Below are positions 1,092 to 3,035 of a stretch of DNA of 64,000 nt, in pieces. Position numbers and translations under genes: made by a program. Numbering within the stretch: position 1 is the first letter of the stretch; each line of letters begins with the position of its first letter. The DNA lies in sequence record PQ471515.1; one strand, given 5' to 3'. Below the pieces are notes generated by a model. That model had not been told where the DNA came from. It did no database searches and saw nothing but the letters and a program-made list of their open reading frames with translations. Origin of the DNA: Escherichia phage Turkey3.

Positions 1092-1758
1092 TTCAACATA
1101 TAGACAGGGGGAAGCTCCGCAGGGAAAGCATTGGACAGGCTTTAACATATGTTATATATGTTAAAATTCAGCCTGGACAAATGCGATCACTAGGATTCTC
1201 CCCAGGCTAAACCCCGTAATCATATGTAGTCATAAGTAATCATATATAAACATTTATATGAGCACCGTAGAATCACAGAATGATTATATATGATTCAGTA
1301 CTGATTAGTATAGACAAGATTACTCAATAATGCTAGGGAAGGATTCAGTACTGCCCCAAAAGTATTCAGTACTGAAGGTGTCGATATCCCACTAAGTAGG
1401 CAGAGGAAGTCTGCCGTACTTTTTAGTTTCCAAGCTCCTTTTCCATTTTGCAAATTACATCAAATGTAATCAAAAGTAATCACGCAATGATTAGTACTGA
1501 ATTATTACTTTCACCTTAATTTCAATTACCCTTTTACCCTTCGGGGTAAAATTCCATTACCCCTTGAGGCTCCAGCAAAAAGTTGGTTAGTACTCCATCC
1601 TAAATCTCGATCCTAAAAATTTTGGAGTACCTATGAAATAAAAGTTGGATCTTCGAAAGTTGAAATTTACGTTGGGACGTTTATGATTTGTGGGATATAA
1701 TGATGTTTGTAGTCGAGTAGAGATGAGTATATCAGTACTGAATGGTGAAAGAAAGTTA

Positions 1759-1786
1759 TTGACATTATGATTCAGTACTGTATAAT
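1759..1786 (+). promoter_or_regulatory. sigma70-like promoter (TTGACA-16-TATAAT) with no ORF downstream
   Basis: TTGACA at 1759, TATAAT at 1781; downstream ~100 nt lacks ORF and ends in T-run. Confidence 0.45.
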
Positions 1787-1792
1787 GTTCTA

Positions 1793-1893
1793 CATAGGGT
1801 GATGAGTTGCTGCGAACAATTCATTTACTCTACCTCCTGTCGTGAGACAGTACAGAAAAGATAGTTCCTCCTGTGGTGGTACATCTTTTTGAA
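1793..1893 (+). ncRNA. candidate small RNA transcribed from promoter at 1759
   Basis: Promoter followed by ORF-free segment with direct repeat CCTCCTGT(C/G)GTG and terminal T-run; inference only. Confidence 0.2.
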
Positions 1894-2169
1894 CCTCATA
1901 TGAAAATCGTAATAACAGTACTGATATTAACAGAATGGTGTCAGTACTGATTTTAATCTAAAGCATTATGCCACCAGCTTGTGCTGGTGGATTCCCTCTA
2001 ACAGTATTCAGTACTACATGATGGTCTTCATCCTCCTAGGGTAACATAGTGAGGGCTATGATGGCAGTACTGAATACTCCCTTTCAAAAGATAGATCTAT
2101 GGTATAGTACTGACGGATTTTGGGTGTAGTTACCCTGGATGGATTTTGGACGTAGATATGTCTAGCCCT

Positions 2170-2296
2170 CCAGAAGTCTGGAAGTAAAGATGGCTATCCA
2201 TCTAGACGGCTAAACGGCTAGATTTCTGGATGGCTAGACGTTTGGACGGCTAAACGGCTAGATGGTTACACGTCTGGAAGTATAGACGGCTAAATC
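2170..2296. repeat. iteron-like direct repeats (GACGGCTAAACGGCTAGAT x2 plus partial copy; CTGGAAGTA and GATGGCTA sub-repeats)
   Basis: Exact 19-mer at 2205-2223 and 2245-2263, partial copy 2285-2296; flanking GTCTGGAAG at 2172-2183 and 2271-2280. Confidence 0.6.
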
Positions 2297-3035
2297 AAAA
2301 TTTTATTTTGTTTTTTCCAATAGTTCCCCTACCGCGTGGGGATAGTTTCCCCGCAGTATCTGGAGTTAGATTTTTCTGAATCTGGAATCATTATCTTATA
2401 AACTGGGGGCAATGTCAACGGCCTGGACGGATATTTTTAAAAATTTTTTCAGTACTGAATTTTGGGCGTAACTATGCACCCGGTGGGCTTGAGTCTTTCT
2501 CGACTTGATGGAACTATTATACAGTACTGAAAAAATAAAGCAATACCCTGGAAGCAAAAAAGTTTTAATTAATTTGCTTGCTATCCTGGGCCGGACTATG
2601 GTACTATATTTCAGTACTGAGAAAGTGCGTTTACCTGCTAGGGTGCGGGAGTGTATCCTTTTTTTATATCTTGAATTTTGGGCGTAATTCCGCACCCTCT
2701 GGGGTTTCCGCTTTCTCGCGTCTATGTAGTAATTATACGCTTTTTCAGGATCAAGTCAATACCTAAAAACAAAATAATTGAAAATAATTTAACGCGTTTA
2801 AACGGCCCGTAAAGCCCTGGAATGATTGGAATGGTGCAAATGTATAGCTTAGGTGTATTAATGCGTTAGAATGCGTCTGAGGCCGTTTTATGGGGTGTAG
2901 TAGTGATTTGGTTGATTCAGTACTGAATAATAGTACTACTATATAGAAAGATAGTTCCCCTGGATGGTTGCAGTACTGAATGATAGTTCCCCTATATAGA
3001 AAGAAAACTATTTTAAAAGTATTTGTAGAAAGTAC

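Follow-up and report, generated by a model that had tools for sequence, protein, structure and literature searches.

The gene-free stretch at positions 1092 to 3030 of the window (the whole 64,000-nucleotide stretch of DNA that was analyzed) is the junction of the unique genome with a direct terminal repeat (DTR) of about 21 kb. As judged by alignment to relatives that are 93 to 97% identical and whose termini have been mapped, the packaged chromosome starts at position 1395. Our comparisons show that the rest of the region is made up of cis elements that are conserved across genera and follow a fixed order, beginning with Element A and an orphan promoter and continuing with a repeat array and convergent mini-promoter units. 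On balance, we think it probable that this junction, with its chromosome end and an array coated by the host repressor MetJ, acts as a protein-bound end region. The 21-kb terminal repeat of this phage group is already published and its ends have been mapped; the cis elements at the junction of the DTR and the unique genome appear not to have been described before.

The window comes from an Asteriusvirus, a jumbo coliphage of the PBECO4/121Q/G17 type with a genome of about 350 kb, and the region is 95 to 98% identical to its counterparts in phages of that group. Two copies of the region are found in records of 366 to 384 kb, and we confirmed a left and a right copy in G17 and fEgEco12. The termini of G17 were obtained from read coverage and those of fEgEco12 from PhageTerm and restriction digests. 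Window position 1395 is matched exactly in alignments by position 1 of fEgEco12 and by the last base of G17. From these two phages, the left end, which is also the outer DTR boundary, lies inside the region at 1394^1395 (the caret marks a boundary or cut), and the other repeat boundary lies at the same nucleotides in both, 22363^22364. The DTR (1395-22363, + strand; 20,969 bp) holds the early-gene block, and its boundaries are identical in the two records. Of the roles offered in the preliminary description, a pac or terminase site bordering the early region is the one supported: the physical end and outer DTR boundary of the relatives fall at 1394^1395, and all 19 AGTACTTGCA-N17-TATAAT promoters lie to the right of the end, within the DTR, at 3031-21445. 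The first of these early promoters (AGTACTTGCAA-N-TATAAT; 3031-3063, + strand) serves the first DTR gene (3119-3481).

The left cut, presumably made by the terminase, has the context GATATCCCACTA^AGT (1383-1397, + strand), with the left chromosome end at 1395. The cut GATATSCCACTA^AGT is common to the window, G17, fEgEco12, 121Q, A4, and Klebsiella phage Muenster, and the record of Muenster ends with GATATGCCACTA and begins with AGTCCG. At the right DTR boundary, the cut reads GGGTAACCT^TAGCGACTT (22355-22372, + strand). Here CT^TAGC is shared by three genera, with no difference at the PhageTerm-annotated boundaries in Muenster and fENko-Kae01. We found that both DTR boundaries, read into the repeat, bear the same short half-site, (G/C)CTA^AG. 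We preferred this half-site to GAAGTC/GACTTC, which we rejected as a symmetric terminase site: the latter falls within the repeat at the left cut (+12 to +17) but beyond it at the right cut (+5 to +10) and therefore does not form a mirror pair. An inverted repeat (AAGTAGGCAGA and TCTGCCgTACTT; 1391-1427, + strand; z = -4.75) spans the left cut, and AAGTC occupies nucleotides 13 to 17 from the end in the window, Muenster, BF, and XbC2. The cut contexts GATATSCCACTA^AGT and CT^TAGC can serve to orient Asteriusvirus and Alcyoneusvirus assemblies and to restore their terminal repeats without new experiments.

Although the region contains mechanical ORFs of 59 to 112 amino acids, so that the label ORF-free is not literally right, it is effectively noncoding. 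Stops or frameshifts interrupt all four of the ORFs tested in one to five of six relatives, with the DNA itself conserved, and we rejected coding potential for the region on this ground. Just before the DTR, the unique genome ends in a noncoding tail (1092-1394) that carries an imperfect long hairpin (1101-1209; z = -5.45), GTAATCA repeats at 1216-1252, and TTCAGTACTG palindromes at three positions (1296, 1346, and 1367). Conservation in the region is lowest over the last 150 nt or so of this tail, at 0.29 to 0.64 for 1275-1400, with indels in the AGTACT repeats. Across the cut, GTAATCA/ATCAAA repeats at 1452-1486 mirror those at 1216-1252. Element A (1570-1636, + strand) consists of an inverted repeat, GTACTCCA (1590-1597) and TGGAGTAC (1623-1630), around two ATCCTAAA units. 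It is 95 to 98% conserved within Asteriusvirus, and in fENko-Kae01, XbC2, and BF it is found 54 to 130 nt from the left end, as mapped or as given by the start of the record. Farther right, two GAYGGATTTTGGRYGTAG units with a 26-nt spacing (2112-2158, + strand) stand directly before the array, and the same motif precedes the arrays in BF and fENko-Kae01. After the array comes an AT-rich run followed by a conserved TTTTTCCAATAGTTCCCCTACCGCGTGGGG element (2296-2345), which is collinear after the array or its Fur-like counterpart in BF, XbC2, fENko-Kae01, and Muenster. Two 34-nt direct repeats (CAGTACTGAATRATAGT...CTATATAGAAAGA; 2909-3004, + strand) lie just upstream of the first early promoter.

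The repeats and motifs listed in the preliminary description are all present and nonrandom. The 19-mer GACGGCTAAACGGCTAGAT has exactly two copies (2205-2223 and 2245-2263), with no other copy in the window even when three mismatches are allowed and none expected. The partial third copy is present as GACGGCTAAA, with an extent of 2285-2294 in our hands. The sub-repeats were found as well, CTGGAAGTA at 2178 and 2274 and GATGGCTA at 2189 and 2229. Four copies of GATTTTGGRYGTA compare with 0.35 expected; those at 2116 and 2142 are exact, and those at 2458 and 2674 have A for the first G. The cluster of CAGTACTG motifs comprises 13 copies between 1296 and 2978. However, this motif is genome-wide and not specific to the region (62 copies in the window versus 0.87 expected; AGTACT, 264 versus about 21). 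Its density in the region is raised about 8-fold locally, and the motif is tied to early promoters. A literature search linking AGTACT to jumbo phages, with most subscription journals outside its reach, gave nothing relevant. In place of the single perfect hairpin with an 8-bp stem described before, there are in fact two: TTTTACCC-TTCG-GGGTAAAA at 1532-1551 (z = -3.4) and CCACCAGC-TTGT-GCTGGTGG at 1971-1990 (z = -4.1). The basic period of the repeats also needs correction, as it is 8 bp and not 40; Tandem Repeats Finder reported periods of 8, 16, 32, and 40, and indels between relatives are mostly multiples of 8.

The label iteron-like missed what the repeats resemble, namely, the boxes bound by MetJ. 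The operators of E. coli MetJ are tandem 8-bp metboxes with the consensus AGACGTCT (PMC3228920). We scanned the window with the MetJ matrix and thresholds of Augustus and Spicer 2011 (PMC3228920), which call for at least two contiguous 8-bp boxes, each with at least a quarter of the consensus score, and a total of at least the consensus score. The period-8 array (2156-2291) has a core of 13 contiguous boxes at 2188-2291 and two further boxes in register at 2156 and 2172. The 13 boxes scored 97.0 bits in total against a threshold of 12.58 bits and were the sole qualifying site in 64 kb. The same scan recovered the positive controls, the E. coli metB/metJ (31 bits) and metF (25 bits) operators. 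The mean score per box in the array, 7.5 bits, equals the per-box quality of these host operators. Thus, by the published matrix and thresholds, the 13 boxes read as a very long predicted MetJ operator. The resemblance was noticed post hoc, and about 1% of random 8-mer units would match the metbox matrix equally well in some register.

The array is like chromosomal MetJ operators in that its 8-bp units are strictly contiguous and in register, with the same base preferences at positions 1 to 5, 7, and 8 and never A at position 6. It differs from them in having 13 boxes versus 2 to 5, in favoring G at position 6, and in lying in phage DNA at a chromosome end, away from promoters and not beside a methionine gene. 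There is no promoter-like site inside the array and no adjacent gene, and promoter-like sites come no closer to it than about 100 nt. The box frequency matrix of the phage arrays fits the metbox matrix at seven of the eight positions in four phage lineages. At position 6, the phage arrays have G in 51 to 67% and T in 33 to 49% of boxes, whereas real metboxes have T in 87% and G in 10%. Because G is at least as frequent as T at this position, the binder of the array could be another protein with a related specificity. Between relatives, the arrays lengthen and shorten in 8-bp steps. The metJ gene is present in the E. coli host, and MetJ is restricted to five gammaproteobacterial orders. A literature search for links between MetJ or the metbox and phages or terminal repeats, again with most subscription journals outside its reach, returned nothing relevant.

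Similar arrays are found in other phages. Collinear metbox-like arrays are present in the jumbo phages BF, XbC2, GAP32, and CBB and in Erwinia and Yersinia jumbo phages, and others lie in the terminal-repeat DNA of T5-like and T7-like phages. The longest, in Aeromonas phage AhSzq-1, has up to 28 boxes. The T5-like phage PR1 has a 9-box array right beside DnaA boxes, and in the T7-like phages KPV811 and PGT2 metbox-like units lie 40 to 145 nt from the ends, beside a T7-like CCCCCATAGGGGG hairpin. No metbox array was found in T5 itself. In Muenster and fENko-Kae01, the place of the array is taken by Fur-box-like arrays, and Fur-box-like units are also found in the T5 injection stop signal (iss) region; no Fur boxes were found in the region of the window. 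Among array-similar phage records, 94 of 95 are named for Enterobacterales, Vibrio, or Aeromonas hosts, which belong to three of the five orders that bear MetJ, an association biased by searches that were seeded from enterobacterial and Aeromonas phage sequences. An exact scan of IMG/VR for GGCTAGACGGCTAGA gave 16 contigs, a few of them with arrays of 4 to 10 boxes, and added little without host or terminus information.

In the explanation we favor, the terminase would recognize and cut the DNA at this region during packaging from concatemers, and host MetJ-SAM would coat the array cooperatively. The array, the AGTACT palindromes, and the other elements may together form a protein-bound end region equivalent, by analogy, to Repeat Region 3 of T5. 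The likeliest role of such a structure would be in DNA-end processing or in the control of DNA entry, as a roadblock or handle at the junction, rather than in the initiation of replication.

It is possible, though we doubt it, that the array is instead bound by a phage protein, either the small terminase subunit or a ribbon-helix-helix (RHH) protein of metbox-like specificity, and is itself the pac recognition site. About 0.8 kb separates the array from the cut, and such arrays lie inside terminal-repeat DNA in several packaging lineages. The systematic G at position 6, which is rare in real metboxes, and the recorded host of XbC2, Xanthomonas, which lacks MetJ, also point this way. However, the same unit is found in Autographiviridae, Demerecviridae, and jumbo myoviruses, which have unrelated terminases and DNA-binding proteins, and Fur-box-like arrays substitute for it at the same place in sister genera. 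Moreover, we found no member of the RHH, MetJ, or Arc families among the 60 ORFs in or flanking the DTR. Searches of these 60 ORFs against Pfam and PHROGs gave no DNA-binding candidate for the array; nearly all of their families are of uncharacterized function.

The promoters and mini-units of the region bear on a different explanation, that the conserved blocks are genes for small noncoding RNAs that regulate early infection and that the DNA repeats are incidental. As described before, the orphan promoter at 1759-1786 (+ strand) is a consensus sigma-70 promoter, TTGACA-16-TATAAT, with a 12/12 match and CAGTACTG in its spacer. The number of promoter-like matches in the region is that expected by chance (10 versus 9.6), but in each of the five genera examined a consensus-like promoter stands at a distance of 270 to 390 nt from the left end. 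The hairpin at 1971-1990 (+ strand), which has no T-run, follows the orphan promoter at a distance of about 180 nt; it is kept in fENko-Kae01 at 485-505 and is a putative terminator in the G17 annotation. On the far side of the array, a leftward promoter-like site, TTGACA-17-GATAAT (2390-2418, - strand; 11/12 match), points into it, and by eye fENko-Kae01 has the same layout. Copy 2 of Element C (2455-2543, - strand) has a leftward TTGCTT-16-TATAAT (2543-2516) followed by a mini-hairpin with a GAGAAAG loop, a CCCACCGGGTGC motif, and TACGCCCAAAAT. Copy 1 (2660-2759, - strand) has a leftward TTGACT-16-TATAAT (2759-2732; 11/12). Its conserved block, 2660-2739, is part of an element 88 to 94% identical to those of fENko-Kae01, XbC2, and BF, whose whole genomes are only about 29% identical. 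A rightward promoter-like site, TTGCTT-17-TATGGT, is joined to a short CTAGGGTGCGGGAG unit that ends in a T-run (2574-2667, + strand) and includes a terminator-like site at 2640-2659. This promoter and the GGGTGC core are present in five genera. On these features, the regulatory hub proposed before is loosely right, as the region is dense in conserved elements of a protein-binding type and in orphan promoters.

The candidate RNAs would be a sense/antisense pair from 2574-2759 and an RNA of about 190 nt running from 1793 to the hairpin at 1971-1990. In support of such RNAs, promoter-like sites are conserved in position in five genera, a T-run terminator-like site lies at 2640-2667, and the stem of the mini-hairpin carries compensatory changes (CGC/GCG, GTC/GAC, CGG/CCG, and CGA/TCG). 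However, a search of 900-3300 against Rfam at permissive E values gave only noise (miRNA and snoRNA models, E > 0.6), and there is no tRNA or tmRNA in the window. Consensus folding across five genera produced only helices of 3 to 7 pairs, with little covariation outside one 3-bp stem, too little for an RNA gene call. The hairpin at 1971-1990 lacks a T-run, and RNAs would leave the array and the terminus unexplained. We regard this explanation as unlikely to account for the region, and it is compatible with the protein-bound end region rather than exclusive of it.

We also considered that the array might be a decoy. Thousands of high-affinity boxes, made as the phage DNA replicates, would titrate MetJ-SAM and so de-repress the host methionine/SAM regulon for the benefit of the phage. 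The array exceeds the two recovered E. coli met operators about threefold in length, at equal quality per box, it lies away from promoters as expected of a pure titration site, and the Fur-like arrays of sister phages could likewise titrate Fur. However, T5 and T7 degrade the host DNA or shut off host transcription early, and de-repression would therefore be pointless in the T5-like and T7-like phages that bear arrays. Nor does a decoy need a constant position at the junction of the DTR and the unique genome. A role as a decoy is thus quite unlikely.

It is very unlikely that the region is a replication origin, the other role suggested in the preliminary description, whether through initiator iterons beside an AT-rich unwinding element or through R-loop primers from the orphan promoters (1759-1786 and the leftward promoters at 2418, 2543, and 2759), of the kind used at the origins of T4 and T7. 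Several features would fit an origin: AT-rich runs at 2292-2318, 2430-2450, and 2655-2675; three to four strong orphan promoters with a G-rich segment and then an AT-rich one downstream of each; very high noncoding conservation; and a local change in the sign of the GC skew, with a cumulative minimum, near 1100-1600. However, with 50 kb of upstream fEgEco12 sequence added, the skew tracks the gene strand and turns positive again 24 kb farther left, so the sign change probably reflects local gene strand and composition rather than a genome-wide V shape, and we did not take GC skew as an origin signal. No DnaA box (TTWTNCACA) was found in 900-3200 and no initiator or replication family among the 60 local ORFs, the nearest of which encode small proteins of no assigned function. 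The same arrays sit inside the short terminal repeats of T7-like phages, and the origins of T5 are reported to lie far from the iss region. The iteron origins of lambda (ori), P1 (oriR), and pSC101 likewise have direct repeats beside an AT-rich, gene-free stretch. Their repeats are spaced units of 17 to 22 bp in helical phase, whereas those of the array are abutting 8-bp units with neither an adjacent initiator gene nor DnaA boxes, and in several phage families that are unrelated to one another such units keep a fixed place at the chromosome end.

If MetJ does coat the array, this would be the longest natural MetJ operator known and the first outside methionine metabolism, and three unrelated phage families would have recruited the same host repressor at their chromosome ends. 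We tentatively suggest a broader reading, in which phages with fixed ends and DTRs build a nucleoprotein structure at the repeat/unique junction from host repressors that sense metabolites, and the resulting filament gates DNA entry or concatemer processing. These phages may include jumbo Rak2-like myoviruses, T5-like siphoviruses, and some T7-like podoviruses of MetJ-bearing gammaproteobacteria, and their structures may take the form of MetJ arrays of 9 to 28 boxes, of Fur-box arrays in sister phages, and of arrays beside DnaA boxes in T5-like phages. The filament would be a roadblock or handle that responds to the SAM or iron status of the host. Were this reading true, the T5 injection stop signal, long without an explanation, would be a special case of a general, testable principle. 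The interchange with Fur-like arrays and the adjacency to DnaA boxes in T5-like phages offer a handle on the makeup of the T5 iss and on how fixed-end phages mark repeat boundaries.

Among known systems, the region may be compared with Repeat Region 3, or the iss, in the left terminal repeat of T5 (Davison, bioRxiv 10.1101/866236; NC_005859), a parallel of position and composition only. Each is a large untranslated region that abounds in repeats and palindromes and lies where a long terminal repeat meets unique DNA. Both are conserved among relatives, more so than many neighboring genes, and overrun into the unique DNA by similar lengths (270 bp in T5 and about 300 bp here). Both hold arrays of host-factor-type sites, which in T5 are DnaA boxes and Fur-box-like units, and in both the genes of the repeat point away from the region, toward the far end of the repeat. 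The two differ in that there is no sequence homology between them, T5 lacks the metbox array, and the region lacks the paired DnaA boxes, which PR1 has beside its metbox array. The repeat takes up 21 kb of a chromosome of about 372 kb here, whereas that of T5 takes up 10 kb of 122 kb. Asteriusvirus is not known to have two-step DNA transfer, A1/A2-type proteins, or nicks, and Pfam and PHROGs searches found no look-alike of T5 A1, A2, or dmp among the 60 ORFs.

The ends of T7-group phages are likewise site specific and bounded by a direct terminal repeat, with short repeat arrays and hairpins beside the cut and strong host-type promoters in the first few hundred base pairs. In the T7 group, the short repeat arrays lie inside or beside a repeat of 160 bp, and processing needs the junction sequences and pausing of RNA polymerase. 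The repeat here is about 100 times longer, holds about 55 genes, and has no promoters for a T7-type RNA polymerase. Lambda cos shares no sequence similarity with the region, and its ends are 12-nt cohesive ends, whereas those here bound a 21-kb direct repeat. In lambda (cosN/cosB and a host IHF site), as predicted here, the terminase cut is flanked by protein-binding repeats. A host DNA-binding protein is part of the architecture of the lambda packaging site, and the candidate host factor here would differ in being a metabolite-sensing repressor bound as a long filament.

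The gene-free region at 1092-3030 shared 95 to 98% identity with jumbo coliphages of the genus Asteriusvirus (PBECO4, 121Q, G17, fEgEco12, and others) and was present twice in records of 366 to 384 kb. We found that position 1395 is the exact alignment point of both fEgEco12 position 1 and the last base of G17 and that 22363 is the alignment point of both the fEgEco12 end and G17 position 1. For fEgEco12, a 20,993-bp repeat has been described, with termini located by PhageTerm and confirmed with restriction digests (PMC13070987); for G17, a redundancy of approximately 20 kb was inferred by read coverage (PMC6563267). 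Because both boundaries align identically in the two phages, the window reads as the right end of the unique genome (1-1394), the direct terminal repeat (DTR; 1395-22363), and the left part of the unique genome (22364 onward). The first 1.67 kb of the DTR, which are noncoding, and roughly 300 nt of adjoining unique DNA make up the region; its identity as a chromosome end has been established before in phages of this group. The preliminary description was right in substance to call it ORF free: mechanical ORFs of up to 112 amino acids are present, but they are broken in close relatives despite conserved DNA.

All 19 AGTACTTGCA-N17-TATAAT promoters are on the plus strand between 3031 and 21445. 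Since they all lie inside the DTR, the DTR is the early-gene block. Its small ORFs (3062-22363) are mostly of no known function, with Pfam matches to a DksA/TraR zinc finger, a ParE-like toxin domain, and a GNAT acetyltransferase; in Muenster, the homologue of a 203-amino-acid ORF (4915-5526) carries the annotation YeeU-like antitoxin. Directly past the repeat boundary (22460-29300), gene organization shifts: the ORFs overlap, are tightly packed, and run to about 70 amino acids (phrog_4148, nine members among those scanned), and they have neither individual promoters nor AGTACT. A dense CAGTACTG cluster had been reported for the region. The local cluster is real (13 copies), but the motif is not special to the region, since CAGTACTG and AGTACT are enriched genome-wide (62 copies versus 0.87 expected and 264 versus approximately 21, respectively, the latter about 12-fold in the window). 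AGTACT is densest at 1-22400 and is absent at 23000-27000 and 30000-39000. At early promoters it either directly adjoins the -35 element (AAGTACTTGCA) or occupies the spacer, and it can provide an extended -10 with its TG (CAGTACTGTATAAT); it is also seen as a 10-bp palindrome, TCAGTACTGA. It is also found throughout the terminal regions of the jumbo phages BF, XbC2, fENko-Kae01, and Muenster, which belong to other genera, and in three genera it clusters directly outside the left cut.

The left cut, GATATCCCACTA^AGTAGGCAGAGGAAGTCTGCCGTACT (caret, cut), sits inside an inverted repeat (z = -4.75). The 12 nt preceding it and the AGT that follows are identical in G17, fEgEco12, 121Q, and A4, and also in Klebsiella phage Muenster, which belongs to a different genus and whose ends were independently predicted by PhageTerm. 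Conservation within the region is lowest directly upstream of these 12 nt, where the DNA is made up of TTCAGTACTG repeats in varying number. AAGTC at nt 13 to 17 from the left end is common to four genera. The right cut is ...CCT^TAGCGAC, and Muenster and fENko-Kae01 have the same CT^TAGC where their repeats are annotated to end. In the direction running into the repeat, each boundary reads (G/C)CTA^AG, a short half-site in inverted orientation, as would be expected if a single nuclease made both cuts. Terminase probably acts at this region.

We confirmed all motifs of the preliminary description, at its coordinates or one to two bases away. The 19-mer GACGGCTAAACGGCTAGAT occurs at 2205-2223 and 2245-2263 and nowhere else in the 64-kb window, with a partial third copy from 2285. 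The sub-repeats CTGGAAGTA and GATGGCTA are present, as are four copies of the GATTTTGGRYGTA motif (two exact and two with one mismatch, versus 0.35 expected), two perfect 8-bp hairpins (1532-1551 and 1971-1990), and a 12/12 consensus match for the promoter at 1759-1786. The basic period of the array, however, is 8 bp rather than 40 bp. Its 13 boxes (2188-2291) read AGATGGCT ATCCATCT AGACGGCT AAACGGCT AGATTTCT GGATGGCT AGACGTTT GGACGGCT AAACGGCT AGATGGTT ACACGTCT GGAAGTAT AGACGGCT, and array length differs among Asteriusvirus genomes mostly by multiples of 8 bp.

These units resemble the MetJ metbox, AGACGTCT, a resemblance noticed post hoc that a random 8-mer unit would equal about 1% of the time. 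Using the published symmetrized matrix and acceptance rules of Augustus and Spicer (PMC3228920), we found 13 contiguous in-register boxes totaling 97.0 bits against a threshold of 12.58 bits, the only qualifying site in the 64-kb window; the top run in 30 shuffled windows was 22 bits. The same scan found the Escherichia coli metB/metJ (four boxes, 31.2 bits) and metF (four boxes, 24.9 bits) operators, which the phage array equals in quality per box. The natural metbox variants AGAAGT.., AGATGT.., AAACGG.., and GGACGTCT are those used by the phage. No promoter overlaps the array, and no description of metboxes in phage DNA turned up in the literature searched.

Pieces of the noncoding region are conserved as DNA in other genera, in the same order and never more than about 1.2 kb from the left end, in genomes otherwise only about 29% identical overall (PMC13070987). 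The array holds a collinear position in Serratia phage BF, XbC2, GAP32, CBB, and Erwinia and Yersinia jumbo phages. Unrelated terminal-repeat phages, unexpectedly, carry it as well. Among T5-like phages, it is found in Vibrio phage Pontus (15 boxes), Aeromonas phage AhSzq-1 (28 boxes, 221 bits), and Providencia phage PR1, where nine near-canonical boxes (88.5 bits) directly follow paired DnaA boxes at the untranslated inner end of a 10.46-kb left terminal repeat (KY363465, 9510-9691). In the T7-like phages KPV811 and PGT2, it lies 40 to 145 nt from the ends, beside a T7-type CCCCCATAGGGGG hairpin. The named hosts were Enterobacterales, Vibrio, or Aeromonas in 94 of 95 phage records with array similarity, although the searches were host biased; the exception was Xanthomonas phage XbC2. 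MetJ is confined to orders that include these hosts (PMC3228920).

We consider it roughly an even chance, or slightly better, that host MetJ-SAM coats the array. The coated assembly would then have a role in processing the ends or controlling entry of the DNA, similar to that proposed for the T5 injection stop signal (iss). The strongest alternative is that a phage-encoded protein binds the array. Box frequencies compiled from four phage lineages agree with the published matrix at positions 1 to 5, 7, and 8, and A is absent at position 6; however, G is as common there as T, versus 10% G in real metboxes. This departure and the recorded XbC2 host, which lacks MetJ, favor such a binder. Against it, 60 ORFs within and next to the DTR yielded no hit to a ribbon-helix-helix or MetJ-like family. 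Alternatively, the array could be a decoy for MetJ, de-repressing methionine/SAM genes. The anatomy of this end, above all a MetJ-operator-like array common to three phage families, appears to be undescribed and would be cheap to test.

Other elements flank the array. Element A (1570-1636), an 8-bp inverted repeat around two ATCCTAAA units, is 95 to 98% conserved; in fENko-Kae01, XbC2, and BF, it lies 54 to 130 nt from the end. All five genera have a positional counterpart of the orphan promoter (1759-1786), at 270 to 390 nt from the end. Downstream of this promoter are two micro-ORFs, 1802-1861 (MSCCEQFIYSTSCRETVQKR, Cys rich) and 1900-1950 (MKIVITVLILTEWCQY, hydrophobic), with no convincing ribosome-binding site and with peptides not conserved in fENko-Kae01. 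A transcription-primed replication origin is a further, less likely alternative for the region. At 2455-2759, two units (Element C, 88 to 94% identical across genera) each pair a leftward promoter with a hairpin, and one rightward unit has a T-run at its end; a single Fur-like palindrome is found just before Element C in BF, fENko-Kae01, and Muenster. One 3-bp stem covaries, a thin indication that these units are structured RNAs, and Rfam gave no match for them; small RNA genes are another, less likely reading.

An iteron origin, as first suggested, is argued against by the period-8 geometry, the lack of DnaA boxes in the region, and the lack of an initiator gene near it. The proposed GC-skew check did reveal a local sign change, for which a minus-strand gene block and a C-rich small-ORF family upstream account; another 24 kb to the left, skew returns to positive. 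In fEgEco12, the negative skew at 330398-348732 is due to about 15 minus-strand RCC1-like paralogues annotated as "chromosome condensation regulator/DNA condensation protein" just upstream of the small-ORF family, which is of the phrog_11711 type and fills the last 5 kb or so of unique genome. At 93-1091, five tandem paralogous phrog_11711 ORFs (60 to 69 amino acids) are on the plus strand yet have negative skew. Just past the last of the unique-region ORFs is a 109-nt imperfect hairpin (1101-1209; DNA fold, -23.6 kcal/mol; z = -5.45), whose left half varies among relatives; many alignments begin only at 1159.

The T5 iss is a highly conserved untranslated region of about 1.2 kb, rich in repeats and palindromes, at the inner edge of the left terminal repeat; it overruns 270 bp into unique DNA and has paired DnaA boxes, to which binding of host DnaA has been proposed (bioRxiv 10.1101/866236). 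The Turkey3 region holds the same place, in the right-hand repeat copy, and in both phages the genes of the repeat point away from it. We found that the iss repeats (NC_005859, 9560-9740) are Fur-box-like AAATGAGAATCATT... units; in 11 kb of T5 there are eight matches to GATAATGATAATCATTATC at up to five mismatches, versus 0.37 expected, and three of the eight are in the iss. Fur-box-like GAGAATGATTCTCATTT arrays occupy the metbox-array position of Asteriusvirus, BF, and XbC2 in Muenster (780-900 and 1070-1100; nine matches versus 0.27 expected) and fENko-Kae01 (700-800; five versus 0.24). Since Fur-box-like units form the T5 iss repeats and take the place of the metbox array in these phages, the repeat/unique junction of long-DTR phages seems to carry an interchangeable module built from arrays of sites for metabolite-sensing repressors of the host.
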